A stretch of DNA of 32,000 nucleotides from Candidatus Saccharimonadota bacterium. GTDB taxonomy: Bacteria > Patescibacteriota > Gracilibacteria > BD1-5 > UBA6164. Positions 4,064 through 30,858 of this stretch are shown here, in pieces. The stretch is taken from assembly GCA_004563595.2 (NCBI GenBank), contig CP042461.1:900001-932000 (forward strand), read 5' to 3'. How positions within the stretch are numbered: position 1 is the first letter of the stretch; the number at the start of each line of letters is the position of its first letter. The position numbers and the translations under genes are program-made. The notes below the pieces were generated by a model that was not told the origin of the DNA, did not search any database, and was given only the letters and a program-made list of their open reading frames with translations.

Positions 4064-4549
4064 ATGATATTTACAACTGTAAATTTCGGACGCTACGAAA
4101 ATAAAAATAAAACTTTACCGCAAATTCTTTTTGATGATGCTGATTGGTTCTTTTACCAATATGAACGAAATCATTTTAAAGGAGCTTTAGCTAACGAATC
4201 TGAATATCTATACCATAGGGCAAGAAATATTTGTATTCCAAAAGAACACCCAGACAATTGGAAGGTAGAATACATGCAGCAACACCCCTCACAAAAATTT
4301 GCTTCTATGATGATCGTACAATTAAGCAAACCTAATCATGAAGGAATAAGTAAGGCTACATATATGGATAGAATCGATATGCGTTTTCCAAAATCTATAG
4401 GTGATTACGATAAACTCGGATATCAACTGTTTATAAAAAATATGAAACATTGTATTTTTGGATCTACAACAATACGTATGACCAAAAAAAAATGTGAGGA
4501 CTTCTTTCGAGATGACTCAAAATTTTTTCTATGATCTACTTTCTCATAG
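4064..4549 (+). CDS. Hypothetical protein, UGA-free ORF; the standard-code stop TGA at 4532-4534 would be read through to TAG at 4547-4549 under table 25
   Basis: 156-aa standard-code ORF with all 6 Gly encoded by GGN and no internal TGA. Classic AGGAG at 4053-4057, 6 nt before the ATG. Under table 25 the terminal TGA adds G-S-T-F-S before TAG. The N-terminal FGRYENKNKTLPQILFDDADWFFYQYE weakly recalls DUF3820-type FGKYKGKTL motifs (low confidence). A strong terminator follows. Confidence 0.65.
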
Positions 4550-6689: not shown

Positions 6690-6846
6690 TTCTATTTTCT
6701 TTAAGTTTTAATATTAAATTAATCATATTGAATTACCTTAAGTAAATCTTAAAAATCTACAATAAATAATTTTTATTTTAGTGTTTTTTTTACAAAAACA
6801 TTATTTTTTATATAATACATCTAAATTATATCCTAATATATATTTT

Positions 6847-9091: not shown

Positions 9092-9124
9092 AAAAAAAAG
9101 CTAGAGTATATCTAGCTTTTTTAT
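9092..9124. terminator. Bidirectional terminator shared by convergent genes
   Basis: aaaaaaaagctaga-gtata-tctagctttttt: stem gctaga (9100-9105) / tctagc (9111-9116) flanked by an A-run and a T-run. The TAG stop of the minus-strand ORF (9101-9103) lies inside the stem. Confidence 0.7.
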
Positions 9125-9493
9125 TTTATAATAATTTTCTACTTTTATAAAAAAGTCTGAAATTACCTTATTATTTTTTTGAGCCTTGTTTTCAACAGCA
9201 TTGTGTTTCCAATACATTAAAGCCCCCTCACTAAAATCATTGTGCTGTAATATTTTATTACTAACAAACACTATTACTTTCTCTTCTCCTAATTTTATAA
9301 CAATATTATCCCTTATAGAAAAGGAAAGATTATCAATAACACAAAGCTTTGATGATTTACCACATTTTTTATCTTCAGCATGTTTTATCAAAGAAGATAT
9401 GACGTTTGCGTTCTCAACTCCATAATAAATTTGTGTTTTTATTGTAGAACAAGAAACAATTAAGCTTAATAAAAATATCAGAGAAATTCTCAT
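9101..9493 (-). CDS. Small putative lipoprotein, hypothetical (UGA-free)
   Basis: 130-aa ORF intact in both codes. Signal peptide with lipobox MRISLIFLLSLIVSC. All 4 Gly are GGN. SD-like AAAGGA lies 8 nt upstream of the ATG (GG at 9503-9504). Confidence 0.6.
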   Translation of the reverse strand: MRISLIFLLSLIVSCSTIKTQIYYGVENANVISSLIKHAEDKKCGKSSKLCVIDNLSFSIRDNIVIKLGEEKVIVFVSNKILQHNDFSEGALMYWKHNAVENKAQKNNKVISDFFIKVENYYKIKKLDIL

Positions 9494-9561: not shown

Positions 9562-9596
9562 AAAAAAAGACGAGATTTCAAATCTCGTCTTTTTTT
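9562..9596 (-). terminator. Rho-independent terminator of the trx-ccdA-msrAB operon
   Basis: Perfect 10-bp stem agacgagatt (9568-9577) / aatctcgtct (9581-9590). On the minus strand it directly follows the msrAB TAA and is followed by a T-run. Confidence 0.85.
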
Positions 9597-10689
9597 ATTC
9601 TTCAAACATCTTCACATATTCTCAATACCCTTCTCCTTCTAAATCTTCATCAGCTATAAATTTCAGAGCAGCTGAGTTAATACAGTATCTGAGTCATCAT
9701 TGATCAGATGGTCAGTCTGAGAAAACATGTCAGAGATGGGAATCTGCTTTTTCGGACCTGACTTCAGTTCTTGTCATAAAAAACTTTGTATCCTCTACTT
9801 CTTCTATGTTTACTTTATCAATAGGCTTCGAAAAACTTGGCCAACCAGATCATGAGTCATATTTATCTTTTGATGAGAACAATGGGGTCCCATCAACTAT
9901 GTCTACATAAATTCCTGCTTCTTTATTATCATTGTATTCATTATCAAAAGCTCTCTCAGTTGCATTTTCCTGAGTCACTCTATATTGAAGGTCTGTGAGT
10001 CTTTCTTTTAAACTTTCCTTATCATTTTTTGTTTCTACTTTTTTTGCAGAATCTCACCATGTATCTTCTATATATCCTTCCCTTCATGATCATTTTGCAT
10101 AGATTTTATATTTCAAGGCAGATTTCTGTGCGTAATCTTGATGGTACTCTTCTGCTTTATAAAAAGCAGTAAATGGAAGTATTTCAGTTACTATTTTTTC
10201 ATCATACTTTCATGAGTCGTCTAATATCTTTTTTGAATTTTCTAAAATTTCTTTCTCTTCAGGAGTATTATAGTACATCGCTGTTGTGTAGTGAAAACCT
10301 CTATCAGCAAATTGTCATCCTGCATCTGTTGGATCTATTTGCTTCCAGAATAAAGAAACGAGATCTTCATAGTTTACAATTTCTGGATCAAAAACTACTT
10401 TTACTCATTCTCTATGTTTTGTATTTCAAGATGAAACTTCTCAGTATGTGGCAGTTTCTTCTGTTCATCATAGGTATCAGCTTGTTGCTTCGATAACACC
10501 ATCTTGAGCATCCATTATTCACTCAATACACCAGAAACAACCTCAGGCTATGTATAATTCTCTTGCATTTTCTGTTTCCATAGTTTTTTTTGTTATATCT
10601 TCTACCTTTTCCCCATTATTCACATGAACAAAAGCAGAAACTAAAATTATAGTTGCAACAATTCCTAGAACTGTTCATATAGTTTTCAT
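9595..10689 (-). CDS. msrAB: Membrane-anchored/secreted peptide methionine sulfoxide reductase MsrA-MsrB fusion
   Basis: 364-aa ORF, no in-frame TAA/TAG. N-terminal TM/signal [21 protein letters not shown]. MsrA motifs: AGGCFWCIEG, SGYLGGTEETATY, HREGVKVVFDP. MsrB motifs: [20 protein letters not shown] (G = TGA at 9730-9732), [10 protein letters not shown]. Confidence 0.93.
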
Positions 10690-10691
10690 AA

Positions 10692-11423
10692 TTATTTATT
10701 TACTTTATCTAAAATACTCTGTTCAAAATTTGTAATATCAAATATTCCAGCATCAATAACAGCTGACTCAAAGTCTTTATCCCATCACATTATAATTGCA
10801 AAACCTAAAAATAGAAATAATACTCATAGTACTTTTTTAAATTTTGATTTTGGACTTGAAATTCATTTTACTTTTGATATAAATTTCTGACCAAGAAGAG
10901 CTATAAGTAATAATACTACACTCAACCCAGTTACATATGCAAGAAGGTTTATAATTCCTGTCATAAAACTTGCTGGCAGTACCACGGCAAGAATAATTGC
11001 ATATGTTGGACTACAGCTTGAAAAGACAGGACCAAGAGAGAGTCAAACCATAACACTTCATATATGTCATTTTTTTTGAGCACTTTTTCACAATAATTTA
11101 TTTGAATTACTTGAAAATCCTAACTTTGTAGAAATATTTTTCCATACATCTGGAAATAATGTTACAATTCAAAACCCTATAATAAGAACTCATGAAAATA
11201 ACTTCCAAACGATTGGATCAATAGCAATAAACAGAGTTGTTGCTTTGAGTACGAGCGAGAATACAATAATTGATGCAGCAAGTGACAGAATAATTATATA
11301 TGGTCGTATTTTATCTTTTGCATCTTCTATACTTGCTCATAAAATCACTGGTAAAAGAGGTAAAACACACGGAGATAATATGGTTAAAACTCCTGCGAAA
11401 AATGATACTATTAGTAGTCACAT
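10692..11423 (-). CDS. ccdA: CcdA/DsbD-family thiol-disulfide electron-transfer membrane protein
   Basis: 243-aa ORF, ATG-TGA start at 11418-11423, TAA 10692-10694, 2 nt upstream of the msrAB ATG. Motifs: AGVLTILSPCVLPLLPVILG and second-half LGPVFSSCSPTYA. Multiple TM helices. Confidence 0.9.
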
Positions 11424-11450
11424 GATTATTTTTTATTATTAAATAAGCCC

Positions 11451-11488
11451 CTTGAATTCTTTCCCCTTATAAGGGGAAAGAATTCAAG
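11451..11488 (-). promoter_or_regulatory. Long perfect intra-operon stem-loop between the thioredoxin gene and ccdA
   Basis: 18-bp perfect inverted repeat cttgaattctttcccctt (11451-11468) / aaggggaaagaattcaag (11471-11488) with a 2-nt centre, locally GC-richer than the flanks. It sits 10 nt after the upstream stop and 27 nt before the ccdA ATG. The minus-strand downstream sequence GGGCTTATTTAATAAT is only weakly U-rich. Confidence 0.5.
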
Positions 11489-11498
11489 TGAAGAGGTA

Positions 11499-12755
11499 TT
11501 AAGATTTCACTTCAGCTAAAATATCTTTTACACTTCTTGATCCGAACCATTTTTTTATCATGTTTCCATTATCATCAATTTGTACAAAAGTGTGTTGTCA
11601 AACAACTTCATATTGTTTTCTTAAAGCAGTACTCGAGTCAAAATCTACTTTAAAGATATTTAATCAAGCTGGTATAGTTTCTGCTGAAATATTCTTGTCA
11701 GCTGCTTTACAACTACTACACCAAGTTGCATGGAAGAATAAAATTTTATCTCATAATGCATTTTTTACTGCTTCTTGTGAATACTCAACATATTGTCATA
11801 TATTATTTTTCACTTCCTCAGTTTCTAAAACCGGCTGAACTTCTACCTCTACTTCTTCTTTTACTTCTGTTTTTGTTTCTTCTTGTATCTCTTCTTTTAC
11901 TTCTGTTTTTGTTTCTGTTTTCACTTTTATATTTTTATGTTCTCCTAGTCCACTTAATATATCTTCTACTGTTTTTGAAGCTCTCCACATTTTTAATTTA
12001 TTCATTTTTTTATCTACTTCTACAAAAGTATGCTGAGAAGTGACTCCGTATTTTTGTCTTAATTCAACATTTGAATCAAAATCTATTTTAAAAATACTTA
12101 AACCAGCTGGTATTTCAGATCCTCTCAGACTCGTATCAGCAGCTTTACATGTTGCACACCATGAAGCATGAAAGAATAATACTCTTCTTCATTTCCCTGC
12201 TTTTACTTCTTCTGCTACATTTGATTCAGTCACATCTTTATAAATACCTTTTTCAAAAGTCACAGATGTTTTTTCAGAAAATCATACTTCTCATTCTATA
12301 TCTTCTATAGTTTTTCCTCAAATCCACTTTTTTATCATATTTCATTCATTATCAACTTGAACAAAAGTATGTTGAGCAACGATTCAATATTTTTTTCTTA
12401 ACTCAAAATTTGAGTCGTAATCTACTTTAAAAACACTTAATCCAGAGGGAACTCATGATTCAGTTATATTCTTATCAGCAGTTTTACAACTCCCACACCA
12501 ACTTGCATTAAAAAATAAAACTTTCTTTCATTCTGTATTTTGAATAGCTTCTTTACTGTATGTAATATATTGTCATTTAGATTGATCTAAAGAAATATCT
12601 TTTATTTGTTTATCTTCAGTTTTTTGATCTTCTATATTTGTAACATTTGCAACTTTAGAATTTGTATCCTCCTGTACCTTTTGGTCTTGTCATGATGTAC
12701 ATGATGCTAAAAATAAAACTCATAAAATAGGTATTAAAACAAGTAATTTTTTCAT
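11499..12755 (-). CDS. Lipoprotein with three tandem thioredoxin-like domains (WCGSC, WCATC, WCSSC)
   Basis: 418-aa ORF (ATG 12753-12755, TAA 11499-11501), frame checked. Lipobox MKKLLVLIPILGVLFLASC. Three paralogous modules of about 95 aa each carry VLFF(N/H)A(S/T)WCxxCKxAD ... GL(S/N)(V/I)FK(V/I)D(Y/F)DS ... QHTFV(Q/E)(V/I)D. A K/E/T-rich linker separates modules 2 and 3. Confidence 0.9.
11855..11916 (-). repeat. Tandem 36-nt repeat in the K/E/T-rich linker of the triple-thioredoxin gene
   Basis: Identical 26-nt core cttcttttacttctgtttttgtttct at 11855-11880 and 11891-11916 (period 36 nt), encoding the repeated ETKTEVKEE units. Confidence 0.8.
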
Positions 12756-12904
12756 CTTTTTTTAAGATTAATATATAAAATGTATGTACATAATAAAACT
12801 CTACCTTAAATTATTCTTAATAAAATAATTATTTGAAAAATACTAAAAATATCTATAATGATTACCTGAAAATATAATTAATAACATTACTTAAACCTAA
12901 AGAT

Positions 12905-13813
12905 ATGCACGCAATAAAAATAAAGAAATTAGTGAAAAAATACGGGAAATTAGAAGTACTGAAGAAGATAGATTTAGAAGTAGAAAAATGAGATTTTTTT
13001 GCTCTTTTATGACATAATGGTGCTTGAAAAACTACTATTATTTCTATTCTTACCAACCTCGTAAATAAAAATTCTTGAAAAATTGAAATAAATGGAATCG
13101 ATATAGATACAGACTTCAAAAAAGCAAGAAGCTATATATGAGTGGTCCCTCAAGAATTTAACTTTGATATTTTTTCAAAAGTACAGGACATCCCTCTTAT
13201 TCAAGCAGGATATTATGGAATTGATAAAAAAACAGCTGCAGAGAGAACAGAAAAGTATATGAAAAAACTTGGTCTCTGGGAAAAAAGAGATGTAAAAGCT
13301 AGAGAGCTGAGCTGATGAATGAAAAGAAGGCTTATGATAGTAAGAGCACTGGTTCATGAGCCAGAAATACTTATTCTTGATGAACCAACTGCTTGAGTAG
13401 ATGTAGAGCTCAGAAAAAGTATGTGGGAATTTATAGAGGGGCTCAATAAAGCTTGAACTACTATAATACTCACAACACATTATTTAGAAGAAGTTGAGGC
13501 TCTTTGTAAAAATGTTGCTATCATGCATAAGTGAGTTATTGTCGAAAATACATCTGTAAAAAACCTCTTATCACAATTAAAAAAAGAGACTATCATTCTC
13601 TCTACATCAAATGAGAATATTAAACTTGATGCAGCATTCAAAAGAAAATACTCAGTAAAATTACATGAAGACAATGAAATAGAATTAGAAATCTCTCAAA
13701 AACACTCTCTCAATGAACTTTTTAAAGAGCTTGATAAAGCAGGAATAGAGGTTACCAGTTTTAGAAACAAAACAAATAGACTCGAAGCATTATTTATGAA
13801 ATTATTAAAATAA
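12905..13813 (+). CDS. ABC transporter ATP-binding protein (ABC-2/drug-exporter type)
   Basis: 302-aa ORF. Walker A LLGHNGAGKTT (TGA at 13010-13012 and 13025-13027), signature LSGGMKRR (both Gly are TGA, 13313-13318), Walker B ILILDEPTAGVD, H-loop LTTHYLEE. 10 of its 18 Gly codons are TGA. Confidence 0.93.
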
Positions 13814-13824
13814 AAATTACAACT

Positions 13825-14580
13825 ATGATAGATTTAATCACACTTACAAATAAAGAAGTCTCTAGGTTTTTAAGAGTCTGGAAACAAACACTTCTACCAC
13901 CAATAATTACAATAGTTCTCTATTTACTTATATTTTGAAAATTTATCTGAGATAAAATTTCAATTGTAGAATGAGTAAATTATATAGATTTTATATTTCC
14001 ATGATTACTCATGATGTCTGTTATTATGGCGAGTTATCAAAATACCAGTTCATCATTCTTTGGTTCAAAATTTCAGCATAATATAGAAGAGCTCTTTGTT
14101 TCTCCAATAGCACATTGGAAGATACTCGTTTGATTCTGTGTATGAGCTATTCTCAGATGAATGATGGTATGATGATTTGTGTTTCTTGTATGAATATTCA
14201 TGGTAGACTTAAATATAGTCAGCTATGCATACATGTTTTTATTCTTATTTCTCAGTTCAACTCTCTTTGCTTTATTATGACTCTTTAACGGTATATTTGC
14301 AAAGACATTTGATGATATTGCTATCATTCCTTCATTTGTAATTACTCCTCTTATTTACTTATGATGAGTATTTTATTCTACAGACCTCCTCTCACCTATT
14401 TGGCAAGCAATCAGTCAAGTGAACCCTATTCTCTATATGGTAAATGGTCTCAGGTACGCTTTTATAGGAATTACGGATGTAAATATAAACCTTGCTATCT
14501 GAATACTAGTGACCTTTATCATAATCTTTATATCTGCAAATATGTATTTATTGAAAAAATGATATGGTATTAGAAATTAA
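13825..14580 (+). CDS. ABC-2 type transporter permease
   Basis: 251-aa ORF starting 11 nt after the ATPase stop. About six hydrophobic helices. N-terminus LTNKEVSRFLRVWKQTLLPPIITIVLYLLIFG and a C-terminal region NPILYMVNGLRYAFIG typical of ABC-2 permeases. Confidence 0.85.
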
Positions 14581-14615
14581 AAAAAGACTCTGTAAAAATT
14601 ACAGAGTCTTTTTTT
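14581..14615. terminator. Bidirectional terminator between the ABC permease and the A2M gene
   Basis: aaaaagactctgta-aaaat-tacagagtcttttt: stem gactctgta (14586-14594) / tacagagtc (14600-14608) flanked by an A-run and a T-run. Confidence 0.85.
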
Positions 14616-14622
14616 AATTTCT

Positions 14623-17600
14623 TTATTTTACTTTAAATATCTCTCATCTTGTTCTTCAGAATACTTCTACATTATAAAATTCACTAATTTTTGTTGGTTT
14701 TATATGGTATTCTCAAGCATGAGTTAGTCTGATAAGGTAACTAAAGTTATGAATACCATTATACAGTCTATCTGTATAAGCAAAGTATCTATCAGTTCTA
14801 TATTCTTGTTTTTGGAAAAGGTTATTATTAAATCTATTCGTAGCTTTTGTTGATGTTGATAAATTTGGATTCACAAGCTCAGATCCTGCTGGAATAAATC
14901 ATTCAAATGCCACTTTATTTCTTGTTTCAGATGTTATAATCTTGTTTCTTACTACTATTAAATCTCATACATTTCATAGCTTAATAGGAGCAAGATATTC
15001 ATATATATCTTTTGGATATTTTAAGTCTTTATATGATGCTTCTCATTTATGATACTTTTTATTCTCTTCTTTTTTGAGATTATATATTTTATTATATTCG
15101 TTGTAATCATAATAATACCTTTCAACAAAGAATCATTCATCACGTGCTTTTATATCTTTTGTGTCTTTATAATAGCTAAGGTTTAAGTCATAGTATACCG
15201 TTCACTTTCAAGATTTATTAATGGTAAAATTACTTGATGATTTTATATTGTCAGTTTTGAGTGATGTAGAATATACTTCCATTTTATTATTTTCATCAAA
15301 GTTTTTTTCAGCAATGGTATCATTATTTATCTTTAGTTTTGCATGAAATTTGATATTTTTTAATTCTCCTGATGATTCTATATATTTTGTAACTCCTTTG
15401 ATAAGAGCAATATTATCCTGTGTTGATCAGAATGATCCATCTTTCTTATTTGATATAATCCACCTATTTATATTATCAACTATTGAATCGAGATCATCAA
15501 ATTTTTCTAATCAGATCGTTGATACAGCTTCAAGAAGAGAAACTGTATTTCTAAACGCTGAATAATATGAAGTTTTACCAATAAATGCTCCTCTTGGGTT
15601 AAACACAAGCTCTTCAGATATAATTTTATCAACTATTTGTTTTGCTTCTTTTTCTAACTCACTTCTTTCATCTTTATTTATTTCCTGAACTTTTAATAGT
15701 TGGGATATAAGTTTTACTTTTTCTAGTTTTACAGTATTTGAATATGTCTTATCTATTTCTAATAATTTCCACATTTTATATGCTTCATAATCTGTTGTAT
15801 CAAAACTGAGTATTGCTGAGATAGCTTTCATTCTATCAATTTCACTATACTTACAATCATTGTATTCTGTTACTTGGCATCATTCAATATAATTTTTATA
15901 AAACCTTGTTTTTAAATACTTCGTTGTTTTATAATACGGAGCTTCTTCTAACTTATATCAAATTTCTCTTATAGAAGCAGCACTCTGTAAAATATATGAA
16001 CTCAGATCAAAGTCTGAATAATTTGGTCAATAGCTCACATCATACCAATAGACAAATCCTCCATCATATTTTTGATATTTTCTAATGTTCACTAAATACT
16101 CTTTGATTGTTTGATCAATTGATTTTTCAGAATATCATTCATATTCTCATGCCCAATATTTGAGCATTTTAGTTTGTAAATTATATTCTTCTCAAACAGA
16201 ACTATATAATTTCTTAATAAATATATTTGGCATAATAGCTGAAGTTTTTTGTTCAGAACAACCGTATGGATATCTATTTAAGTAATCGATCCCATCTGTG
16301 AGGTTACTGAGGAGTGTTGCTGAGTAATTGGCTGTTATTTTTCATTTTGAACTGTTTATATTTCCAAGCTCTAGTTTCTGTTCGAATGAATCATTTTTTG
16401 TTTTTCAAAAAGTAGAAACTGATTCTTGTGTTGATGACTCGTGAATCTGTACTTTTTTTTCTATTTCATCTTGATGCTGATTATCTTCTGATACTGCTTT
16501 AAAAGTAAGAGTACTAAAGAAAAAATCATTTTTTTCACTTAAGCCTATATCATCAACTGTAACATCAAAGTGAACGGTTTTTTGATCTCCATTTTTAATA
16601 AATATTTTTTGTTTATTTTCCGATATATTTTTTAGATTTGTTGCAGAAAGCATTACACTAAATATTTGGTCTTTCCCTGTCTTATTAAATACTACTGGTG
16701 AGAGCATTATACTATCATTTGATACAAAAAATCTTGGAAGATTATCATTTATGAGTAATTCTTTACTCGTAATAATAGTAGTATATGTTACTCATACTTT
16801 ATTCCCTATACTTGTATTTGCCAGAGTTTCAATCACCCATGTTGTAAGGTTATCTGGAAGATTTGTTGTCGTCATACTTACTTTTCAATTTGTATCCGTA
16901 GTCACATCAGCACTCCAATATGCTGTATCTTTAAATGTTCCTCTTTTCTTTTTTGAATCTCATCATTTTACCCTGTCTCATGCTCATCATTTTTCTCCAT
17001 CACTGGTATCTTTTACCTCTAATTTTTCAATAAGAGTTTTGAGTGATCCATAAGTATATGTTCATAAATACCTTTTCATATCATAGAAAAATGCATATGG
17101 GTTCTTTCTTGGGTTTCATTTGAGTGCTAATAGACTCTCATCAACTAGTGATATACTCAGGTTAGTATTTGCAATAGGATTTCAGTTCTTATCTTTTGCT
17201 TGTATGTCTAATTTTACTTTCTCTCATGGAAGATATTTTTGTTTGTCTGTTTTTATATCTATGAATATTTTTTTATCTTCGGTATCTACCTTTGTAACTG
17301 TTAATGCTCTTTTATATATTGGAAGTGGATTTCCTTCTTGTTGTCATATGAGGTATGCTCTCAGATAATAGTTTGGATAGTAGGTATCTTTTACATCTAT
17401 AGTGATTTTATCTGAAAATGACTGAATATCATGTATGAAGTAATCAAGTATCGCATCATCTTTTTCAACTATGAAAAGTGCTTTTCATGAAGACACAGGA
17501 GTTTTTAACATGTATTCAGCTGTATCTCCTACTTTTATTTTCAACTTATCAGCAACAAGCTCAGTTACTGAGTTATTCTCATTTGGCCATATAATATAAT

Positions 17601-20600
17601 CTGCTCATGCTACATATACTACTTTTGAACTTATAAACTCTTTGTTATTTTTTCAAGTATAGATTGCTTTGATAAGATATTCTCATGAAGTTTTTGTTTT
17701 AATGTTCTTTTTGAATTCTCCAAGAGTATTTGTAGAGGTAAAAATATCTTTTTCTTTTATTTCTTCAAGTGAATAATCATTATAGAACACTCCATCAACT
17801 CACTTTTTTTTCACTGATTTCCATTCTCTTTTAATCAGTTCTAGTTTCACTTTTTTATTAGCGAGTACTTGAGCATCAAAATTAAGCACTACTCAATTTA
17901 TATCTATTCAGCTTTCTTTACTATTATAATAATTTGTTTTTATCCCAACGTATGCATCTGTGGTATGAAGAATTTTTGATACTGATTTATTTACCACTCT
18001 TTTTGTATCAGGATCAGTCACCTCTATATTAAATCTGTGAAGCTTTTCTCAGAAATTATCATCAAATTTATAAACTAGATTATAAGTTCCATCATCATGA
18101 ATATCAAATGAGCTCGTGTCGATAAGCTTATCACGATAGTTACAGTATCCCCAATACACACATTCAAAATATTTATATCATTCTCAAAAATTATAATCAG
18201 AATAGTCTTTGGCATCAAAGAAATAGTTTTGAGTAAGTATACTATATTTTCATGATGTATTTATAATTTTCCCACCAAAGTAATACTCAGGTTTCACTTG
18301 TATTTGCACCGAGTCTCATAGAATAAAATCTTTTTTGCTCTCAGAGGTTTCCAACTTAAAGTCTGGTTTCCTATACTCTTCAATATGGAAAAAAGCATTA
18401 TTTCTTACACTATTTTTGTCTGCTGTTCCAGTAAACCTAAAACGAAATTTTCATAAATTTACTTCTGCTGGTATAATAAATTCTCCTGAAAAATTTGAAT
18501 TATCATCTATTGTAATATCTTTTGAGGCTATACTTTTTCCAGATGGATCTATCAGTTCTAGCTTTGCTGTTTCACTTTTTGATTTTGTATATCATGTTGG
18601 AGAAAAATATCTTAATAATCATTTAAAGTAGACGATATCTCCTGGTTTATAAATAGGTCTTTCAGTATATAAATACAAATAATCTTTTTGTGATGAACTC
18701 TCACCTGAGATATATTTAAAATCATAATTTGAAAAACTATCATATCTCAAGTTTAAAAATCAATAATTATTTTCTCATGATGCAGCTACGTAACTAAAGT
18801 CAGAGTTTTCTATTTCATATACTCCATTCACATATGTAGATTTTGGTGTTACAACACTATCTTCCTGTTTGTATGACTTTTTATTATATTGAGTTTTATA
18901 AAACTTGAGATTAAGGTTTGGAATACTATTTCACCCAAAGTCAGTGATATATAATAAATTTTTATTTGATGCTTTCTCAAAATATACCGAAAGATTTGAT
19001 TTTTTATATGTTGTCTCAAATTTATCCTGTCATGGATGTGTTCATGCTGAAACTATAATAAACTTCTGGGTGAATTTAGTTCCTAAAATATCTTCTTCTA
19101 AATCAAACCTGTTATTTGATAGATTCCAATTATAATTTTTTAATTGTAGTTGTTTTGTTTGTGTATTATTACATTTTTTAACATATCAGTTCTGGTACCT
19201 ATTTGCCAGATGATATATATAATTTATCTCATCCATTTCACATACTTCTACGTGTGCTTCACTATTATTAATAGATTGTAAATTCATTACTATCGGCAAA
19301 TTATCAGGAATAGTGTTTACATCATTTGAAAGGCCTGAATAAAGATATTTATCTTTATCTAAAATGTCTTTTGTTTCTACTTTGTATTCAAGCGTATTTT
19401 CTAAACTATTATTATATATATCCACAAAGTTATTCTCGATTGCAAGTAAGTAGCTTGAATGTGGATTGAGCCTTGTATTTAATACATAAAGAAATTCTCA
19501 TGATTTTGCTTTTCTACAATATCATAATTCTTCTAATTCTTGATCAGGTTTTCATTTTAATTTATAGGGTATATGTTGGTACCCACTTACTCATTTTTGA
19601 ATAGATTCAGGGCTTGTACTATATACATGAACACTTTGTTTCCATGCGTTTATTTCATTATTGAGGTATAAACATGTTTTTGAATAATTAATAAATTTCA
19701 AATCTTTCACTATCAGTTTGTCTGTTGTATCATAAGTAGTCACAATGTCATCTGTGAGAGATTTATTTATAACTTTGAGTACTTGAAGAGTATAAGCTGT
19801 TTTATAATTCAGATCTGTCTTTAAAGTGAGTTTAATTTTCTTTTTATTAATAACTACTTCATCCTTTTTAAGTTCTTTATTATATTTTTTTTCTTCTCTA
19901 TAACTGATATCAAAGTCTATTTTTTCATTATTACTCGAAAAAGAAAAGTTAGTTTTATTCAACTCTACTTCTTCATAAAAATTTAAATGAAAAAATAGAT
20001 CTTTATTTGCTATTTTACTTTTGTTACGCTGATAAGTGGAGTCTAATAAAACTCATGTTGAAGAATATATATTTTGGTATGCATCAATACTATCTAAAAG
20101 CTCTATCGTTTTGAGCTGTTGAAATATAGGTTTGGTAGTAGAGATATTTCCATTTTTAGACTTTAATCCAGTTGCTATTTCTAGAGTATATTGGCTGTTA
20201 TATGTAAATCCATCATGAGAGAGAGAAAAATGAGTATCTGATATTTTTAAAACTTTTACATCAAGTGCTGGGCTTTTATTTTTTGCTCAAATTTTATTCT
20301 CAAATAATTTGAATTTACTTTTTAATTCATCGATACTGACAGGAAAATTAAAATTGATATTAATTCCCTCAGTTGGAGCAAAATTTTGAGAAAAATATGC
20401 TTGTAGCTTTGTTGTTGATAATTCTATTTCTTTTGTTTCTTGAAGTTTATATAATAAACCTTCTCTATCCTCTACTTTTACTGAATATTTTGTTGCTCAA
20501 ACAAAAGAATCATTAGGAGTAAATTCTAAAACTGAAGTTGTGGTCCAACTACATTTTCATTCAATTTTTGGTTCAATAACTATTGGACATGGAAGAGAGT

Positions 20601-21120
20601 CTCTTGAATCTAAATCTGTAAGAGGAACCATTGGTATATTAAAAAATACAGCCAAGCTTTGTCACAGATTATTTAATTCTCATGATGGAGTTATTTTGAG
20701 AACTTTTGCTCACGAAACAATTTCAATAAGGAAATGAATATCACTTTCAAGTGCCCTTCATTTTTTTGTTTGTAATCATTTTAAAAAACTAATACTCAAT
20801 TCATCTCAAGTCTTATTCTTCTCAAGAAAGGTATATCTGAGTACATTTGATTGAAGCATAGATATCTTCCCTTCAATATTTGATTCAAAGTTTTGTATAC
20901 TTGTTTCATCTAAATCATACGAAAAAGTGAAGTCTATATGATCTTCTGTTACTGGTATTTTTTTATATCACAAATCAAAATTTCAAGCTGTAACTTCAAA
21001 TTTTGCAGGGGCTAGGTTTTCAAAAAAGTTTGTATTTTTTTGAAAATGAAAGAACCCAGTAATTACAAATATAAATATTACTAGAGCTGAAATCATTGCA
21101 TATCTTTTCCTCTTTTCCAT
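14623..21120 (-). CDS. Bacterial alpha-2-macroglobulin family protein (thioester-containing, N-terminally membrane anchored), 2165 aa
   Basis: Every triplet from 21120 down to 14623 was checked: no TAA/TAG and dozens of TGA. N-terminal anchor MEKRKRYAMISALVIFIFVITGFF. MG-domain signatures TERPIYKPGDIVYFKG and FHIEEYRKPDFKL. RGTFKDTAYWSADVTTDTNGKVSMTTTNLPDNLTTWVIETLA. Thioester site YPYGCSEQ. C-terminal receptor-like region VAFEGFIPAGSELVNPNL ... EYRTDRYFAYTDRLYNGIHNFSYLIRLTHAGEYHIKPTKISEFYNVEVFGRTRGEIFKVK. Confidence 0.92.
16249..16272 (-). other. Thioester motif YPYGCSEQ of the A2M homolog
   Basis: The minus-strand codons TAT CCA TAC GGT TGT TCT GAA CAA can be read directly. This is the CxEQ thioester signature (E. 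coli YfhM has CLEQ, eukaryotic A2M has CGEQ). Confidence 0.85.
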
Positions 21121-21151
21121 GTGTTGATATTTTAATTATAAACTCTTTTAT

Positions 21152-21179
21152 ATTTTAGATTTTTTAGTAAGATTGTAAA
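21152..21179 (-). promoter_or_regulatory. Possible sigma70-like promoter for the A2M gene
   Basis: Minus strand TTTACA (21174-21179), 16 nt spacer, TAAAAT (21152-21157), about 30 nt upstream of the ATG and downstream of the preceding terminator. Such matches are frequent in AT-rich DNA, so this is weak. Confidence 0.25.
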
Positions 21180-21203
21180 GAAGTTTTGTAGTATTTTTTT
21201 GTT

Positions 21204-21230
21204 TTAAAAAACTCCCTTGGTTGAGGGAGT
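21204..21230 (-). terminator. Rho-independent terminator separating the hypothetical gene from the A2M gene
   Basis: Stem actccct (21211-21217) / agggagt (21224-21230) with loop tggttg, followed on the minus strand by TTTTT. It starts 8 nt after the stop at 21238. Confidence 0.75.
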
Positions 21231-21237
21231 TCAAATC

Positions 21238-22065
21238 TTATTTTTTTGTTTTTATAATGAATCAAATAATGAAAATAATAAAAATTCAAATAATATAGTA
21301 TAAATTACCGATTTTATTATTTTCAGAAATAGCTAGTATTTCTTCCTTATCCAAGAAATCCTTATTATCTATATAATTTAAATTTTTATTTATAGCACTT
21401 TTACCTTTGCAGAATCATCCATTTTTAATAACTTCATTTACAATTTTTTGCTGAATTGCTATTTTTTCTTCCTCAGAACTATATTTTTCATATGGAATTC
21501 ATATAGATTCAAATATAACAGGTCAAATACCTTCAAACAAAGAGTTGCAATCTATAACTCAGTCTATTCATATCCCTGTTCAGTCTATTTTCGTAATACC
21601 ATTTTTCAAATATACCTGAGAAATTTCTTCTTCCCATTGATCTTCAGATTTTTTTTCAGGGGTATTTCTATTTATAGCAAAGTCTCCCCTCTTATCTCTA
21701 TAATTAGTGATAATAGTGTCTCATTTTTGAGGACGATATCATCCATTTTTCACATATTCCGATGCTATCATATCCAAAGAAAACTCACTCGTTGAAACAT
21801 ATACTCATTTACTCAATAACTTGGTTTCATCTCATCTATGAGTAAAATATTTATAATTTTCAAGTTCAAACACATAATACTTTCTCTTATCCTCTCATAC
21901 TTCTAAAGAATAATATGGATCTTTATCCAAAGTAATAATCTTTACATTTCATACCTCTCATAAAATAAAACCATATTCTATTTCATTAAGTCATTTTCCC
22001 CCTCAAGCAAAAGAGTCAGCAAGAAGAAATATTTGCAGTAATAATATGCATAATATTTTTTTCAT
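21238..22065 (-). CDS. Hypothetical exported protein with an N-terminal signal peptide and a C-terminal hydrophobic anchor plus basic tail
   Basis: 275-aa ORF under table 25, frame checked, with many in-frame TGA. N-terminus MKKILCILLLQIFLLADSFAGGG. C-terminus NNKIGNLYYIIGIFIIFIIGFIIKTKK-stop. No recognisable catalytic motif. Confidence 0.7.
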
Positions 22066-22090
22066 AACAATATTTATTATCTAGTAAAAT

Positions 22091-22114
22091 AAGGGTGAGT
22101 TTAAACTCACCCTT
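22091..22114 (-). terminator. Terminator hairpin after the amidase-domain gene
   Basis: Perfect 10-bp stem aagggtgagt (22091-22100) / actcaccctt (22105-22114) with loop ttaa, followed on the minus strand by ATTTTA (modest U-tract). Confidence 0.65.
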
Positions 22115-22134
22115 GTAAAAGTCAAGCAACTATC

Positions 22135-22821
22135 TTAGTTACGATAAAATGTTGGTCTATACACATGAAACACTGTATATGTTTGATTAATTGACTGTAA
22201 TGTAACATTTTTCTGTGAAGAATGACCATCACTATTTTGGTAGCTTACCTTGATGCCACTATATGAATTATATAGCTTATCAGTCACTATCATAGAATGA
22301 TCAATATGCCCATTTCCTGACCAATCAGCAAAAATAACATCACCCTCTTCAACTTTTGAAGTATTCAAGTATTGCGTTGAACTATCTTTGGTTATAAAAT
22401 CAAAGTGCATCCCCCAATATGAATTTGAGTTACTTTTTGCATAAGTGTAGAGTTCATGAGCACCAGCCCATGCATAACCTCGTGATGATGGAGTATTATA
22501 ATACCAACAATAATCACACCCTTTATCTCTATCTGCCATATAATAGCCACGCTTATTATATACATAGTTCTTGTCAGAATTATCTACCAAACCAGCTAAA
22601 ACTGCTTGACTAACAAAGTTAGTACAGTTTCCACCATATGATTGATACTCTGGAAATGCAGTACTAGTTTTTGCATAATTCAATGCATACTGTACTGCTG
22701 GAGTACTGGAATAAGTACAAACCCCCTTAGCATAGTCACCACATGAGCTTGAACTCGCAGACATAGCTACACTTGAAAAAAATGAAGCTAGTACAATCAA
22801 AACAACAAAAATTTGTCGCAT
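22135..22821 (-). CDS. Secreted putative cell-wall amidase (Amidase_6 / NlpC-P60-like papain-fold domain), UGA-free
   Basis: The ORF is uninterrupted in the standard code. Preferred start is ATG at 22819-22821 (MRQIFVVLIVLASFFSSVAMSA signal peptide); the stop is TAA. Motifs: AVQYALNYA ... YGGNCTNFVSQAVLAG (Cys nucleophile context) and GHIDHSMIV (His). All 15 Gly are GGN and none is TGA. Trp is TGG. The sequence is visibly less AT-rich than its neighbours. SD-like AAGGAAAAG lies upstream of the ATG. Confidence 0.8.
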   Translation of the reverse strand: MRQIFVVLIVLASFFSSVAMSASSSSCGDYAKGVCTYSSTPAVQYALNYAKTSTAFPEYQSYGGNCTNFVSQAVLAGLVDNSDKNYVYNKRGYYMADRDKGCDYCWYYNTPSSRGYAWAGAHELYTYAKSNSNSYWGMHFDFITKDSSTQYLNTSKVEEGDVIFADWSGNGHIDHSMIVTDKLYNSYSGIKVSYQNSDGHSSQKNVTLQSINQTYTVFHVYRPTFYRN

Positions 22822-23149
22822 TTTTCTTTTCCTTTTGTTTGTGTTTTTACTTCCAACCTTGAAAGCACACAAAATATATGAAAAAACTTTTCTTTTACAA
22901 ATTTATTCTCGACTTTCTTCTCTATTTTAAGCCATTTTAACTTTTCAAGACATTCATTATAATGACAAGACATTAACAGGACATTAACAAAAATAATTTT
23001 CTATTTTTAAATGTTAAAAACTTAATTTTCATCCCTTTAAATTCTGATTTTTATTTTCATATTTTTAAAAAATATTTTTTTATCTTCTCTATATTGATAA
23101 TTCAGGTCATTTCTATACAATCAATATATAATCTTCTCATCAGAAAAAA

Positions 23150-25144
23150 ATGAAAAAAATAAAATTACTCCTCATCTTTATTCCTCTCCTGTTAATTTTC
23201 ACATCAATACTCTCATTAAAAATCAACCTTCCCACACCTTCTACTATTATATATGACAGTCACGATATTGAAATAGGAGAAATTATACAAGATGAAAAAA
23301 CAAGACATAGACCGATAAAAATTGAAGATATCCCTGAGTTCACAAAACAAGTTATAATAACTCTTGAGGATAAATCATTTTACTCAAATATTTGAATAGA
23401 TTTTAAAGCTATAGCAAGATCACTGTATAATAATATTTCTTCATGAAAAATAGTTGAATGAGCATCAACTCTCTCAACTCAAGTAATTAGAAATAATTTT
23501 TGGCTTAATAAAAAAAGAAGTTATTCCAGAAAAATATCTGAATTTTATCTCGCTCTTATTTTAAATACAAAATATTCAAAAGATGAAATACTCGAAAATT
23601 ATCTCAATAGAATATATTTTTGAAATCTTAACTACTGAATAGAATCAGCTTCACAATATTATTTCGGCAAAACATTACAGAACCTAACAAAAGCTGAGCA
23701 AATTGCTCTTCTTATTATTCCAAAAAATTCAAGCAAGTATTCTCCAAATAAACCAAGCTTCAGAGTACGTTTTGAAAAGGTAGTAAACTATTTGCAAGAT
23801 AACTGAGTTTTATCAGCAAATGAAGCAAGAAATATCCTCAATGAAAAATTAGATTTTAATTATGAATCTAATGCTACTCTTCCCTATATTGTTGATTATA
23901 TTCAAGCAAATAAGCTAGAAAAAGAAAGTAATATAAAAACAAGTATAGATTATTACCTCACAAAAGAGATTGAAAAACTGGCTCTGGATACTGTTTCAAG
24001 TCTATTTTGGAAAGATGTATGAGATTATTGAGTCTTAGTTGTTGATAGAAAAACAAATGAAATAAAAATAATGATATGATGAATAGATTATTATTTAGAA
24101 AATGGGCAAGTAAATTCAACAACAGCTCTTAGGCAAGCTTGATCAACTATAAAACCTTTTACCTATATACTAGCATTTCAAGAACTTTGATATAAACCAA
24201 GCTCAACCATAATAGACCTCCCTATACAGTTTTCCACTGCTGAAGGAAATACTTATAGCCCAAAAAACTACTCACTTGATTATAAATGAGAAGTAACATT
24301 AGCAGAAGCACTCAGCCAAAGTATCAATATTCCAGCCGTAAAACTTACAAATGAAATCTGACTCACAAGATTATACGATTTTTTAAAGTCACTTAACTTT
24401 TCTACCCTTAATGAAGATCCAGAATATTACTGACTTGCGTTAACTCTCGGAGTGTGAGAAATGAAATTAATAGAACTATTAGAAGCCTATACTATATTTG
24501 CTCATGAGTGAAGTATATGTAAGTTTACTATACTCTCTGATTCTGAAAATATTTGTGATCATAAAATAGAAAAAAAATATACTGATATGGTTAATGAAAT
24601 ACTTACAAATAGGTATTTTAAACTTGGATGATTCCCTATTCATTCAAATCTTGATTTTCCAGACAGAAACGTATTTGTAAAAACATGAACTTCAAGAAAT
24701 TTTAGAGATAATTGGTCAATATGATTTACAGATAATTATATGATCTGAGTTTGGGTATGAAACAAAGATGGGACATACATGAAATGAGTTTCTTGAACCA
24801 GTTGAGCTGGAGATATATTTAGGAAAATTGTATACTTGCTCGAAAAAGAAGATCAAGATACAAATGCTATAATATATGATTCATCTGAATTAGAATACTT
24901 AGATATTATATCTCCACTTGATGGAAGTATTTACAAGCAAGGTATAATACAACAAAGAAACCAAGTAAAACTTGGTTTCAAAACAAATATAAATTTTAAT
25001 AATTATGCTTGGGAAGTGAATTGAAAATTATATGATGCAGATTTTTTAGATTTAGAAGCCTGAAATCATGACATAAAAATTAGTATATTTCAGAACTGAA
25101 AATTAATAGGATCTGAGAGTTCGAGAATAGTAGTTGAGGAATAA
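23150..25144 (+). CDS. pbpC: Penicillin-binding protein 1C (bifunctional GT51 transglycosylase / transpeptidase with PbpC-type C-terminal domain)
   Basis: 664-aa ORF, frame 2 checked line by line. TM anchor MKKIKLLLIFIPLLLIF. GT51 motifs EDKSFYSNIGID, GASTLSTQVIRN, RKISE, KDEILENYLNRIYFG. Transpeptidase motifs RQAGSTIKPF (SxxK), SQSINIPAV (SxN), KTGTSRNFRDNW (G = TGA at 24686-24688). C-terminal LDIISPLDGSIY-type domain. Confidence 0.92.
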
Positions 25145-25190
25145 GGGGAGAGGATTCAGGAGAGAGGTATCTATTCAAATGTATACTATT

Positions 25191-26063
25191 CTATTCCCTA
25201 CTATCACAATATGGATCTAAATGAATCATCACATTCCGAGTAAAATTTTTATTAATTTTTGGAATGGCATATTCCACATGATCTGAAATCCTATGTGCAT
25301 CAATGAGCTTTATTTCAGGAGTAAATACTAAGTGAATTTCTACAAACTTTCTGTGCCCTGATTGCCTAGTTTTTAATTCATGATATGAAGTGATCAAAGC
25401 TTGTTTATCTATTATTTTAATAATTTGATCTATTTCTTCTTTATCCAAAGATATATCAAGCAACAATCAATATCACTTCTTTATGAGATCAAATGCTGAA
25501 TAAATAATATACAATGATATTATAATTCATAAAATCGCATCAATAATATAAAATCATGAAAAATGAATGATAACAAGTCATAGTAAGATAACAAGATTAC
25601 TGTACAGGTCTGTTTTATAATGAAGTGAATCTGCATGAATTACGATATTTTCAGTTTGTTTTGCTACCTTTTCTAAAAAATATACTAAAAATCAGGTAAT
25701 AATAACTGATATTATCATCACTCAGATAGAGTAGCTTAAGTACTCTACTTTCTCATTTCCTATAAGCTTTAAAACTGCTGTATAAAAAATAAAAAAACCT
25801 GAAAAAGTAATGATTAATCATTCAAATAGTGCAGCTAACGCTTCTATTTTCCCCCTTCAATAATTAAAAATCCCATCCTCTTTTTTTTCTGAACTTGAAA
25901 CTGCAAAATAATTAAATAATGACACGAATAAATCAAGCAATGAATCTATTGCAGATGATAATACAGCTATTGAACCACTTAAAATTCATATTGCAAACTT
26001 CATAACGAGGAGTAAAAATGCAACAACAGATGAAATAAGAGTGGCCTTTTTTTGTAGTGACAT
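25191..26063 (-). CDS. Cation diffusion facilitator (CDF) family divalent metal efflux transporter
   Basis: 290-aa ORF (ATG 26061-26063, TAG 25191-25193). TM region with SGSIAVLSSAIDSLLDL, FNYGRGKIEALAAL and HADSLHYKTDL. C-terminal cytoplasmic domain YHELKTRQSGHRKFVEIHLVF ... AHRISDHVE. Confidence 0.88.
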
Positions 26064-28971: not shown

Positions 28972-30858
28972 TTAATTTTGTTGAGTATATTCAGTTCAAA
29001 CAGCCCCATGAGGAACATTATTCTTCTTTCATCAATCTACTATTACGTGACTCGCTAAACTAAATGATGATGTTGTATAATGTATGGCAACTCTTCAACC
29101 TCATCCTCATCATCCACTATTTCCTGGATATGTAGCATGATAATATGCATTTCATCCATTTGCATAAATATACCCTGTTCATGATATATCTCAGGCTTCT
29201 ATCCATACACTTCATCAAGAACCTCATCATCCCGCTCTTCTTTGTGTACTTCACATCGTTCATGTTCAATCTGCTCAGTTTGTAGTTATAACCCCATCCA
29301 AAACCATACTTCAAGCTATATGTAATTGAATTGCTCATCCTCCTTTTCATCCATAACTCCAGTTTCATCATCCACTTCATATATCTATTGGCTCAGTTGA
29401 ACTTCCGTAAGATGGTCATCATGCAGCCGAAAATCCTGATGCTCAAGCTCATCCATATCCTCATCCTCATCCAGTATAATACCAGGTTGGTCCTGATTCA
29501 TATACATAATATACTCAATTTCCAGGTCATGTACCTTTATTATATCACCCAAAATCAGCATTTATATATCAACCTGATTCTAAAGTCATACTTGAAGCAA
29601 CAATATTAACAATATTTACTTTTGAAGTTGTGTTAGGTACATGTATTATGGTACCATTTGACTTAACAGTTATATCTCAAATCATTGTTAATTCAGATAG
29701 TCATGATAGCTGAAGAGTAGTTGCATTCGTTCATCATATTTCTAAAGAATAGACTTCAACTCATCATGTAGTATCAAGACTAATAGTTGCATTTGCATCA
29801 ATAGTTACTGCGTCTGATGATGTTGGTAACCTTCATAGATCCCAATTGGCAGTATTTGACCAACTTGTACTTGCTCCTCAAGTCCAAACAATAGGAGTCG
29901 GTGGAATACAAGCATCTCATACTGATTTAACAAATCAAGTATTACATTTCCAACTACATCCTGCAGTTGCTGATATATCGTAAGACCATGATTGGTCATC
30001 TGATGTAGCCGTTCAGTTGTAATATACTGCATTGCCTATACTTGGTTCTGCAGAACATGCATAAGATACAAGCTTTCCTCATAAGAGTAATACTGCAAAA
30101 TTTTCTAAATCGTTATTATCACCTAAGTTTACTCAAGAGAGATAATTGTATTCTCCAGCACTTAAATCAGTTGATCCACTATAAGCAGAGTGTAGGTTTG
30201 TTGTAAAATTTGCATAATTACCAGAAATATTACTTGTATTTACTCCTAAATCTTGCACTGTAAATAGAGTGTCATGTGTATCTACATGGAACGTTGATTC
30301 CGCAGATAAATCTGCACCATCAGCATGAAGTGAAGGTGATGCATAGTATTTGTTATCACCTCAAATAACATAAAAACCATTATATTGTCATACTACCTTT
30401 GGAAAAGTTGTTTCAGAGGCATAAGTAGAATTTGTGATATTATTTTGTTGTGTTACCTCAAAATCATACATAAGTTGATATTCCTTTTGATTCAAGGTTG
30501 TTGAGTAATTCATATATTTTCAAGTCAATGGGTCTTCTGGGATTTTTGATATCCTCCCAACTTGTGTTTGTATAGAAGTAGCTACTTCTCATGTATGCCA
30601 AAGGTTTGTTCCTGATGCTGTTACGAGTGTTGATGAGTCTGGAAGAGGGTACTTACCATACTTAATCACATGTAATTCTAATACATTTTTAATTGATTGC
30701 ATATCAACTATTCTTGTAGAGTTTCTGGCTAATTTACTATATCATTGAAGTGATATAAAAGCGATTGTTCATAAAATAGCCAAAATAGTAATTGTAACGA
30801 TCAATTCAACAAGGGTAAAAGCTTTAGTAGATCGATATGTTTTTTCAAGTATGTTCAT
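28972..30858 (-). CDS. Giant type IV pilin/pseudopilin-like protein with a glycine-rich (beta-helix-like) C-terminal domain
   Basis: 628-aa ORF (ATG 30856-30858, TAA 28972-28974), every triplet checked. N-terminus MNILEKTYRSTKA|FTLVELIVTITILAILGTIAFISLQGYSKLARNS is paralogous to the 6847 gene. Also KIPEDPLTGKYMNY. The C-terminal third has YYTGGGGGYGGAGASGFSAAGGPSYGS, GSGGGNWSYGGKGGGAIQLHIAG, RRAGGGGSGGSVWIEAGDISGTGYIYANGGNA and GNSGGGGGGGRVAIHYT. Confidence 0.85.

Follow-up and report, generated by a model that had tools for sequence, protein, structure and literature searches.

The window examined here is a stretch of 32,000 nucleotides (contig CP042461.1 of assembly GCA_004563595.2, positions 900,001 to 932,000, from a Candidatus Saccharimonadota bacterium), and the genes in question lie at 14.6-25.1 kb within it. 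They encode a predicted alpha-2-macroglobulin (A2M), a predicted class A penicillin-binding protein (PBP) and, between these two, an exported amidase of the Pfam family Amidase_6 and a membrane-anchored hypothetical protein, which we call the partner. When the region was translated with table 11, only short open reading frames (ORFs) were obtained; with TGA as a sense codon four long ORFs appeared, and these are exactly the four that an earlier note on this DNA had listed. Because UGA occupies the GxGxxG glycines of a neighbouring flavoprotein gene and the P-loop glycine of Der, it is read as glycine (code 25) and not as tryptophan, and it accounts for approximately 60% of all glycine codons in the window. 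A tRNA scan of the window found none, and hence gave no direct evidence of a tRNA-Gly(UCA). Independent assemblies, one represented by a 412-kb ENA contig and another by a Logan contig, have the identical gene order, which rules out an assembly chimera. The features of the region are as follows.

14574-14620, no strand assigned: bidirectional terminator-like hairpin with a 20-bp stem (terminator scan), common to the convergent A2M and ABC-permease genes
14623-21120, minus strand: A2M gene, 2165 aa, 69 UGA codons read as glycine
21121-21237, minus strand: intergenic region between the partner gene and the A2M gene, with a hairpin and then a promoter-like site ahead of A2M
21238-22065, minus strand: partner gene of the cassette (hypothetical protein), 275 aa, UGA in 17 of 28 glycine codons
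22091-22114, minus strand: intrinsic-terminator-like hairpin between the amidase and partner genes, 10-bp stem with 5 GC pairs, T-run
22135-22821, minus strand: amidase gene, 228 aa, UGA in 0 of 15 glycine codons, TAA stop, GC 0.35
22822-23149, no strand assigned: divergent intergenic region between the amidase and PBP genes, where both promoters presumably lie
23150-25144, plus strand: PBP gene, 664 aa, 28 UGA codons

We consider it likely that two independent units stand side by side at this locus, namely a conserved A2M-PBP pair and an inserted amidase-partner cassette whose amidase is kept free of UGA.

Linkage of the A2M and PBP genes

The relatives of the A2M were collected by a scan of the GTDB species representatives, which yielded 16 full-length or near-full-length proteins (34-54% identity) from metagenome-assembled genomes (MAGs) of Gracilibacteria and 'Peribacteria'. 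The proteins of the window were mapped onto these 16 loci by tblastn with code 25, and 14 of the loci had usable flanks. A PBP orthologue was found no more than 5 kb from the A2M gene in 13 of the 14 informative loci, so the linkage that the earlier note had read from the window holds among its relatives. In eight loci the PBP gene is upstream and divergent with a gap of 145-575 bp, and in three others it has the same placement with 2-5 kb of unrelated genes between (e.g., a MutY-like ORF). The remaining three comprise one locus with PBP downstream and co-oriented, one with PBP downstream and convergent, and one with no PBP within 10 kb. Since 11 of the 13 linked loci are divergent, the head-to-head order is regarded as the norm and the ancestral state in this lineage; the earlier note had treated it as a peculiarity of the window. 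In-frame TGAs occurred in all 16 related A2M loci, the high-GC ones included. The idea that the linkage predates recoding, on the premise that the high-GC relatives use the standard code, was rejected, as those relatives carry in-frame TGAs too.

The identities of both linkage partners, as first proposed, were checked against Pfam and NCBIfam. The A2M matches the Pfam families MG2, A2M_BRD, A2M, TED_complement and bMG10 above their gathering scores, and it also carries an N-terminal Big_5 domain. Its closest solved relatives are Escherichia coli YfhM (ECAM) and the Salmonella A2M (E~1e-21), which rank ahead of the eukaryotic A2Ms. The thioester motif PYGCSEQ lies at about residue 1620, and CxEQ was kept in all 15 orthologues that cover this region. 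The N-terminus (MEKRKRYAMISALVIFIFVITGFFHF) has no lipobox cysteine, as anchoring as a lipoprotein would demand; a single N-terminal transmembrane (TM) helix, acting as a signal anchor, is predicted in the window copy and in the full-length orthologues. By its domains and motif, the protein is a YfhM/ECAM-type, thioester-bearing bacterial alpha-2-macroglobulin.

The PBP contains the Pfam domains Transgly (E=6e-52) and Transpeptidase (E=9e-19), with intact motifs in the transglycosylase (EDKSF, GASTLS and RKISE) and transpeptidase (STIK, SIN and KTG) parts, an N-terminal TM anchor and a C-terminal beta-sandwich tail of about 90 aa. Among the NCBIfam models TIGR02073 (PBP_1c) was at the top with 430.8 bits, which is below its own cutoff of 494.2 but above the scores of the PBP1A and PBP1B alternatives (PBP_1a_fam, 378.6; PBP_1b, 265.5). 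The identity to E. coli PbpC was 26% over nearly the full length (E=3e-66). Judged from these scores, the protein is a class A PBP that is closest to PBP1C. A PbpC-type C-terminal domain had also been claimed, and this assignment is supported at the level of the family, where BiPBP_C (PF06832) was matched in nine of ten orthologous tails (best E=1.9e-7); for the window copy itself the match was weak (E=0.014; 15.7 bits, where the cutoff is 26.8). The hhalign comparison of the PBP tails with the E. coli PbpC tail was weak as well (20% probability).

The linkage of bacterial A2M and PBP1C genes goes back to Budd et al. (2004), as cited in PMC4498604. In E. coli, pbpC abuts yfhM on the same strand (genome coordinates; also PMC4498604). 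The pair of the window shares with yfhM-pbpC the CxEQ-type A2M, the MG/BRD/TED/CTMG architecture, the physical link to a PBP1C-like class A PBP and the predicted anchoring of both proteins in the cytoplasmic membrane, facing outward. It differs from the E. coli pair in several respects: the two genes are head to head from a shared intergenic region rather than co-oriented and abutting, the A2M exceeds ECAM by about 500 aa, has additional Ig-like domains at its N-terminus and carries a TM helix where ECAM has the lipobox, the PBP falls about 100 aa short of PbpC, the host is a recoded member of the Patescibacteria, and the pair in the window is split by a 2-kb cassette. The A2M-PBP pair is thus a variant of the yfhM-pbpC linkage, with divergent transcription, TM anchoring and a longer A2M.

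Membrane-anchored surface proteins with A2M domains (1895-2368 aa) have been reported from Vampirococcus lugosii and from Gracilibacteria MAGs, which are code-25 lineages, and were proposed to defend against host proteases (PMC8080830, PMC9793634). The window A2M belongs with these very large, membrane-anchored proteins of code-25 lineages. However, neither report speaks of a linked PBP, whereas the linkage was present here in 13 of 14 informative genomes. The searchable literature holds no mention of A2M-PBP linkage in Absconditabacteria or Gracilibacteria. The earlier note had considered the four-gene module undescribed for table-25 bacteria; of its parts, A2M proteins of Absconditabacteria and Gracilibacteria were already reported.

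An amidase and its partner in the A2M-PBP spacer

In the window, the amidase and partner genes occupy a 2029-bp gap between A2M and PBP. By the same tblastn mapping, no relative of either protein was found in any of the 16 related A2M loci. Because all 16 lack the cassette, the gap is explained by a lineage-specific insertion into the shared intergenic region, as the earlier note had supposed and as the short gap in eight of the related loci also indicates. Of the co-occurrence of the partner family with A2M or Amidase_6, which the earlier note had offered as a check, that with A2M was not seen in these loci. The search for repeats around the insertion returned AT-rich chance matches only, with no terminal repeats and no target-site duplication. 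In the high-GC relatives L005 (3640-7022), L007 (5059-10001) and L011 (8024-9998), other inserts lie in the PBP-A2M spacer, including MutY-like and small conserved ORFs, and the spacer appears to be a recurrent insertion site.

The amidase matched Amidase_6 (PF12671) with E=4.8e-22 and 79.2 bits (cutoff 23.2). It has a signal peptide and four N-terminal cysteines, and an alternative TTG start is located at 22872. In 16 aligned members of the family, C66 (GNCTNFVSQ) and H175 (IDHSMIV) were invariant, and the signal peptide and the four cysteines were likewise kept. In the AlphaFold2 model (pLDDT 90.5, pTM 0.87) the cysteine is at the N-terminus of a helix and the histidine on a strand. The sole significant PDB match of this model in Foldseek was Bacillus subtilis YjcM (E=2e-6), taken from an integrative model of the YjcM-YjcN complex (PDB 9a4p), and the weaker matches were papain-like hydrolases; a PDB sequence search with the amidase profile gave no match. 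Amidase_6 has been grouped with the NlpC/P60-CHAP amidases and with type VI secretion system (T6SS) amidase effectors (PMC10318531; TseH, PMC4453574), and B. subtilis YjcM and YhbB are listed as uncharacterised putative wall hydrolases (PMC10653849). From its sequence and model, the amidase is most likely a secreted papain-fold Cys/His hydrolase, putatively a peptidoglycan amidase or peptidase, and by analogy the label of wall hydrolase seems reasonable. The family is small and mostly metagenomic. A metagenome scan with the amidase alignment recovered chiefly distant Amidase_6 relatives, of which only L023 and L029 were informative, and the relatives in viral collections were only 26-32% identical.

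The signal peptide and C-terminal anchor that had been noticed in the partner were confirmed by reading its sequence, in which there is also an extracytoplasmic domain (about 200 aa) that has two conserved cysteines, as well as a C-terminal TM helix and a Lys-rich tail. The partner had no Pfam or NCBIfam match, and its family amounts to three representative clusters in 1.84 billion proteins. A word-indexed search with the UGA=Gly translation returned only the protein itself, whose database copy has UGA=Trp and so 17 wrong residues. This copy (P0024, window 21238-22065) and the other proteins of the contig are stored in the UGA=Trp translation (table 4), and the JGI contigs of related genomes were called under table 11 and are hence fragmented. 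Both practices lower the recall of homology for UGA-rich families.

The cassette, which occurs in at least eight recoded genomes besides that of the window, was investigated in nine loci (the window, L020, L103, L104, L105, L107, L021, L023 and L029), with the contigs read under code 25. In all nine of these recoded loci the amidase gene is followed on the same strand by a gene whose product combines a signal peptide and an extracytoplasmic domain (150-230 aa) with a C-terminal TM helix and a Lys-rich tail. The window partner was 48% identical to that of L020 (E=3e-51), and in the family alignment its homology was clear in L020, L103 and L105 and weaker in L107. Relative to the window copy, the identities in L020, L103 and L107 were 64, 63 and 50% for the amidase and 45, 43 and 22% for the partner; this rank-congruent divergence is consistent with co-inheritance. 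Neither A2M nor PBP stands beside the cassette in any of the eight other loci, where the neighbours include topoisomerase-like and AlaRS genes (L020), PheT/DnaE and ribosomal protein genes (L105) and Fic/ArsP/CDF genes (L107). The amidase and its partner are best read as an independent cassette inserted in the conserved pair, and a module shared with A2M and PBP is not supported.

The two inserted genes have their own terminators, as had been noted before: hairpins with T-runs lie at 22091-22114 (minus strand) and at about 21209-21232 (minus strand), the latter formed by GAACTCCCT...AGGGAGTT in the partner-A2M gap with an RNA folding energy of -14.4 kcal/mol. A terminator-like, GC-rich hairpin with a T-run was found between amidase and partner in all eight cassettes folded, conserved in position and not in sequence. 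The amidase genes of L020, L103 and L105 have in front of them a conserved promoter-like element (TTGACT-N17-TATAAT), then roughly 120 nt of leader and a GGAGG Shine-Dalgarno sequence; the region upstream of the window amidase has no obvious relation to this element. In front of A2M a promoter-like TTTACA-16-TAAAAT (21179-21152) was picked up by the promoter scan, and this is weak evidence, since such sites were not enriched over shuffles in AT-rich DNA. No Rfam family was matched in 14000-25500.

Two of the amidase loci deserve separate mention. In L105 (GCA_002422305.1, DIUG01000031.1) the module of amidase promoter, leader and signal peptide is duplicated (87% identical over 217 nt) ahead of a second secreted ORF. 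This ORF of 295 aa (in 12142-13341) is also free of UGA (0 of 20 glycine codons), has no Pfam match and is followed by a membrane ORF of 95 aa, so that it looks like a second cassette built to the same plan around another payload. The L105 amidase itself (9692-10381) has an in-frame TAA after about 44 codons, either as a pseudogene or through a sequencing error, and the partner gene is intact. L022 (1-11572) comes from a standard-code, GC-rich bacterium. Its amidase homologue has a GC of 0.47 against 0.57 for the genome, ends with TGA and adjoins an integrase/AlpA/HicB island, and the next gene encodes an unrelated multi-TM protein of 225 aa; in this case a different amidase partner is used outside the recoded hosts.

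The cassette is similar to Tae-Tai, TseH-TsiH (PMC4453574) and YjcM-YjcN in that the gene of a papain-fold Cys/His amidase is immediately upstream of a small partner gene and the partner is located in the compartment where the enzyme would act; its best structural match, YjcM, was moreover modelled bound to the product of the neighbouring gene (PDB 9a4p). In contrast to Tae-Tai and TseH-TsiH, it has no context of T6SS or type VII secretion, uses ordinary export by a signal peptide and has a terminator between its two genes. The partner family is unrelated in sequence to known immunity proteins. Our best guess, based on gene order, topology and the analogy of YjcM-YjcN, is that the partner may be an immunity-like or control factor.

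Absence of UGA from the amidase gene

None of the 15 glycine codons of the window amidase is UGA, against a window background of 60% (P=1.2e-6), in agreement with the UGA-free state that had been noted earlier. We found the same in the amidases of eight recoded hosts (0/15, 0/16, 0/16, 0/17, 0/18, 0/17, 0/17 and 0/10; in total 0/126). The share of UGA among glycine codons was 61-94% in the adjacent partner genes, 57-78% in the background of each locus and 33-73% in the ribosomal proteins of L105. Only seven of the 150 genes with at least 10 glycine codons in the recoded loci were free of UGA, and five of these seven were amidases (Fisher P=3.5e-8). The other two were the L105 ORF that shares the amidase leader and a GC-rich ORF of L003. 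High expression was rejected as an explanation, since the ribosomal proteins use UGA at 33-73%. The L003 ORF (21888-22715; 0 of 21 glycine codons UGA) has a GC of 0.43 in a genome of 0.28 and a codon-usage z of -5.1, and it reads like an MlaA/VacJ outer-membrane lipoprotein by inspection of the sequence only. It seems to have been imported recently from a Gram-negative bacterium with the standard code and served as the positive control for recent horizontal gene transfer.

The amidases of the recoded hosts were only 45-64% identical to each other. At 14 conserved glycine columns the codons switch among GGA, GGT, GGC and GGG, and TGA never occurs. The synonymous codon usage outside glycine was in the host range for the window amidase (z=-0.8) and mildly atypical, at z=-1.6 to -2.9, for the other copies, compared with -5.1 for the L003 import. 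All amidases in recoded hosts end with TAA or TAG. The homologues that were at least 59% identical and whose context was examined were all in recoded genomes, and the nearest confirmed standard-code relative, L022, was 46-48% identical. Low mutual identity, turnover among the GGN codons and codon usage near that of the host indicate either long-term UGA avoidance or repeated cross-code exchange and not a single recent import. These results argue for a UGA avoidance that is sustained, although cross-code exchange is hinted at by the GC mismatch of L022, its integrase island and its position in the tree described below.

In-frame TGA is also absent from 34 of 38 predicted Gracilibacteria phages, which are therefore compatible with code 11, while the integrated prophages are TGA-dense (PMC10746230). 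The amidase is similar to these phages of Gracilibacteria and Absconditabacteria in its lack of in-frame TGA, its universal stop and its readability in codes 11 and 25, but it is a single chromosomal gene with a UGA-rich partner adjacent and no phage genes nearby. In the literature we found no earlier report of a UGA-free chromosomal gene beside a normally recoded partner, only of whole phage genomes.

Elsewhere in the window, two large proteins (6781-9081, plus strand; 28972-30858, minus strand) have prepilin-type N-termini, FT(I/L)(I/V)ELIV, and Gly/Trp-rich repetitive bodies; their genes contain 70 and 53 UGA codons, and the proteins may be pilus-tip or surface adhesins. At 9595-12755 (minus strand), just upstream of the ABC pair and A2M, genes for fused MsrA/MsrB, for a membrane protein like CcdA/DsbD and for a lipoprotein in which a thioredoxin-like repeat occurs three times form a cluster that resembles an extracytoplasmic oxidative-repair set. 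Two small ORFs without Pfam match (4064-4549, plus strand; 9101-9493, minus strand) are low in UGA (1 of 7 and 0 of 4 glycine codons), numbers too few for significance.

Alternative readings and biological meaning

In the reading that we prefer, the first unit would be a Gracilibacteria version of yfhM-pbpC, a head-to-head pair of a membrane-anchored thioester A2M and a bifunctional PBP1C-like peptidoglycan synthase, expressed divergently from a short shared intergenic region without forming an operon. By analogy with ECAM and PbpC, the A2M would trap proteases arriving at the cell surface, and wall building or repair would fall to the PBP. The second unit would be a two-gene cassette of about 2 kb, inserted in the A2M-PBP intergenic region in this lineage only. 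Its first gene appears self-contained, with its own promoter region, a UGA-free ORF, a TAA stop and its own terminator, and would encode an Amidase_6 hydrolase of papain fold that is exported by Sec and most likely acts on peptidoglycan as an amidase or peptidase. The second gene would encode a lineage-specific protein that a C-terminal anchor exposes on the external side of the membrane; this protein may serve as the cognate immunity or control factor and protect the producer's own wall. The amidase would have been kept UGA-free across divergent recoded hosts and so be readable in both code 25 and code 11.

Several observations weigh against parts of this reading. The sample of cassettes is small (nine loci) and comes from fragmentary metagenomes with many short contigs, and the homology of the partner, secure in five loci, is motif-based only in L023, L104 and L021 and is replaced by architecture alone in L029. 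Effector-immunity pairs are normally co-transcribed, and a terminator between amidase and partner is unusual for such a pair. The term immunity is drawn solely from gene order, topology and analogy, and Foldseek gave no close match of the amidase model to the characterised Tae or Tse amidases. In a rough neighbor-joining (NJ) tree the amidases of recoded hosts were not cleanly monophyletic, and the standard-code L022 nests among them, so that some cross-code exchange is inseparable from selection in situ. On the side of the pair, the window PBP falls short of the curated PBP_1c cutoff and its own BiPBP_C match is sub-threshold; if it were the only class A PBP of the genome, it would be a housekeeping synthase rather than a dedicated repair enzyme.

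It is very improbable that A2M, partner, amidase and PBP form one functional envelope module selected as a unit, which the earlier note had proposed. The four genes, all within 10.5 kb, each encode an exported or anchored envelope protein, and the MsrAB, CcdA and thioredoxin-like lipoprotein genes for envelope repair are nearby; nevertheless, the four genes recur together in none of the 16 related A2M loci and in none of the eight other cassette loci, each gene has a separate terminator, and other lineages hold different cargo, such as the MutY-like gene, at the same intergenic position. We also think it quite unlikely that the amidase was acquired so recently from a standard-code bacterium that it had no time to gain UGA and needed no selection to remain without it. 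The amidase GC (0.30-0.35) and GC at third codon positions are somewhat above the host values, the GGT-rich glycine usage of the window amidase is unlike that of native genes, and standard-code relatives exist, for example in Polyangium and in L022 beside its integrase island, the latter nesting among the recoded copies. But this would not account for a UGA-free state repeated in eight recoded genomes whose amidases have diverged so far, for saturated GGN turnover with not one TGA, for a UGA-rich partner that co-diverges with the amidase, or for a codon usage within the host range; and the closest homologues of examined context are all in recoded genomes, L022 being more distant.

The origin of the cassette as a remnant or moron of a phage or mobile element kept dual-code, with the amidase as an endolysin and the partner as a holin- or spanin-like protein, is unlikely too. 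It would agree with the code-11-compatible phages of Gracilibacteria (PMC10746230), the different chromosomal context in every genome, ParA and integrase genes on the contig of one relative, the distant Amidase_6 relatives in viral contigs and the duplicated module of L105, which suggests modular shuffling. On the other hand, the flanks of the cassette in the window, L020, L105 and L107 are free of genes for phage structural proteins, integrases and transposases, the insertion is not bounded by terminal repeats, the viral relatives are only 26-32% identical, the partner is UGA-rich, unlike a dual-code element, and integrated Gracilibacteria prophages are reported to be TGA-dense (PMC10746230). 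Rather unlikely, finally, is a pair of housekeeping autolysin and membrane regulator that serves the cell's own wall turnover or division and is not antagonistic. The Amidase_6 proteins of B. subtilis are among the endogenous putative wall hydrolases (PMC10653849), and an insertion beside a peptidoglycan synthase gene is compatible with wall remodelling. However, the distribution is narrow and patchy, with the partner family limited to its three representative clusters, 16 related loci lack the cassette, whose position varies, the in-frame stop in L105 suggests that the amidase is dispensable, and the avoidance of UGA would be left unexplained.

A further idea, distinctly unlikely in our judgment, is that the cassette would serve to sense or bridge the genetic code: the amidase, without UGA and with a universal stop and a consensus-type promoter and Shine-Dalgarno sequence, would be readable in any code, and the protective partner would be made only where UGA is decoded as glycine. 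If so, disabled UGA decoding would stop the partner and not the amidase, and the wall would be lysed. This could be triggered by a code-11 phage that brings release factor 2-like activity, by tRNA-Gly(UCA) being lost or cleaved, or by passage of the DNA into a standard-code cell, and the cassette would function either as a switch of the abortive-infection or dead-man kind or as a weapon expressed in standard-code neighbours that have no antidote. This would be the first codon reassignment exploited as toxin/antitoxin logic.

Recoded Patescibacteria are believed to be epibionts or predators of other bacteria. The A2M-PBP1C association has been recurrent but unexplained since 2004, and the divergent pair kept across recoded Patescibacteria with GC of 0.20-0.59 means that it reaches far beyond the Gram-negative bacteria of the original description. 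This conservation of the linkage strengthens the case that A2M and PBP cooperate at the exposed cell surface. In addition, translation with UGA=Trp or with table 11 in public databases hides families such as that of the partner protein. The amidase is one gene in a code-25 genome that is kept free of the reassigned codon across a long divergence, and it provides a concrete way to test how gene flow, antagonism or phage defence between recoded bacteria and their standard-code neighbours is shaped by differences in code.

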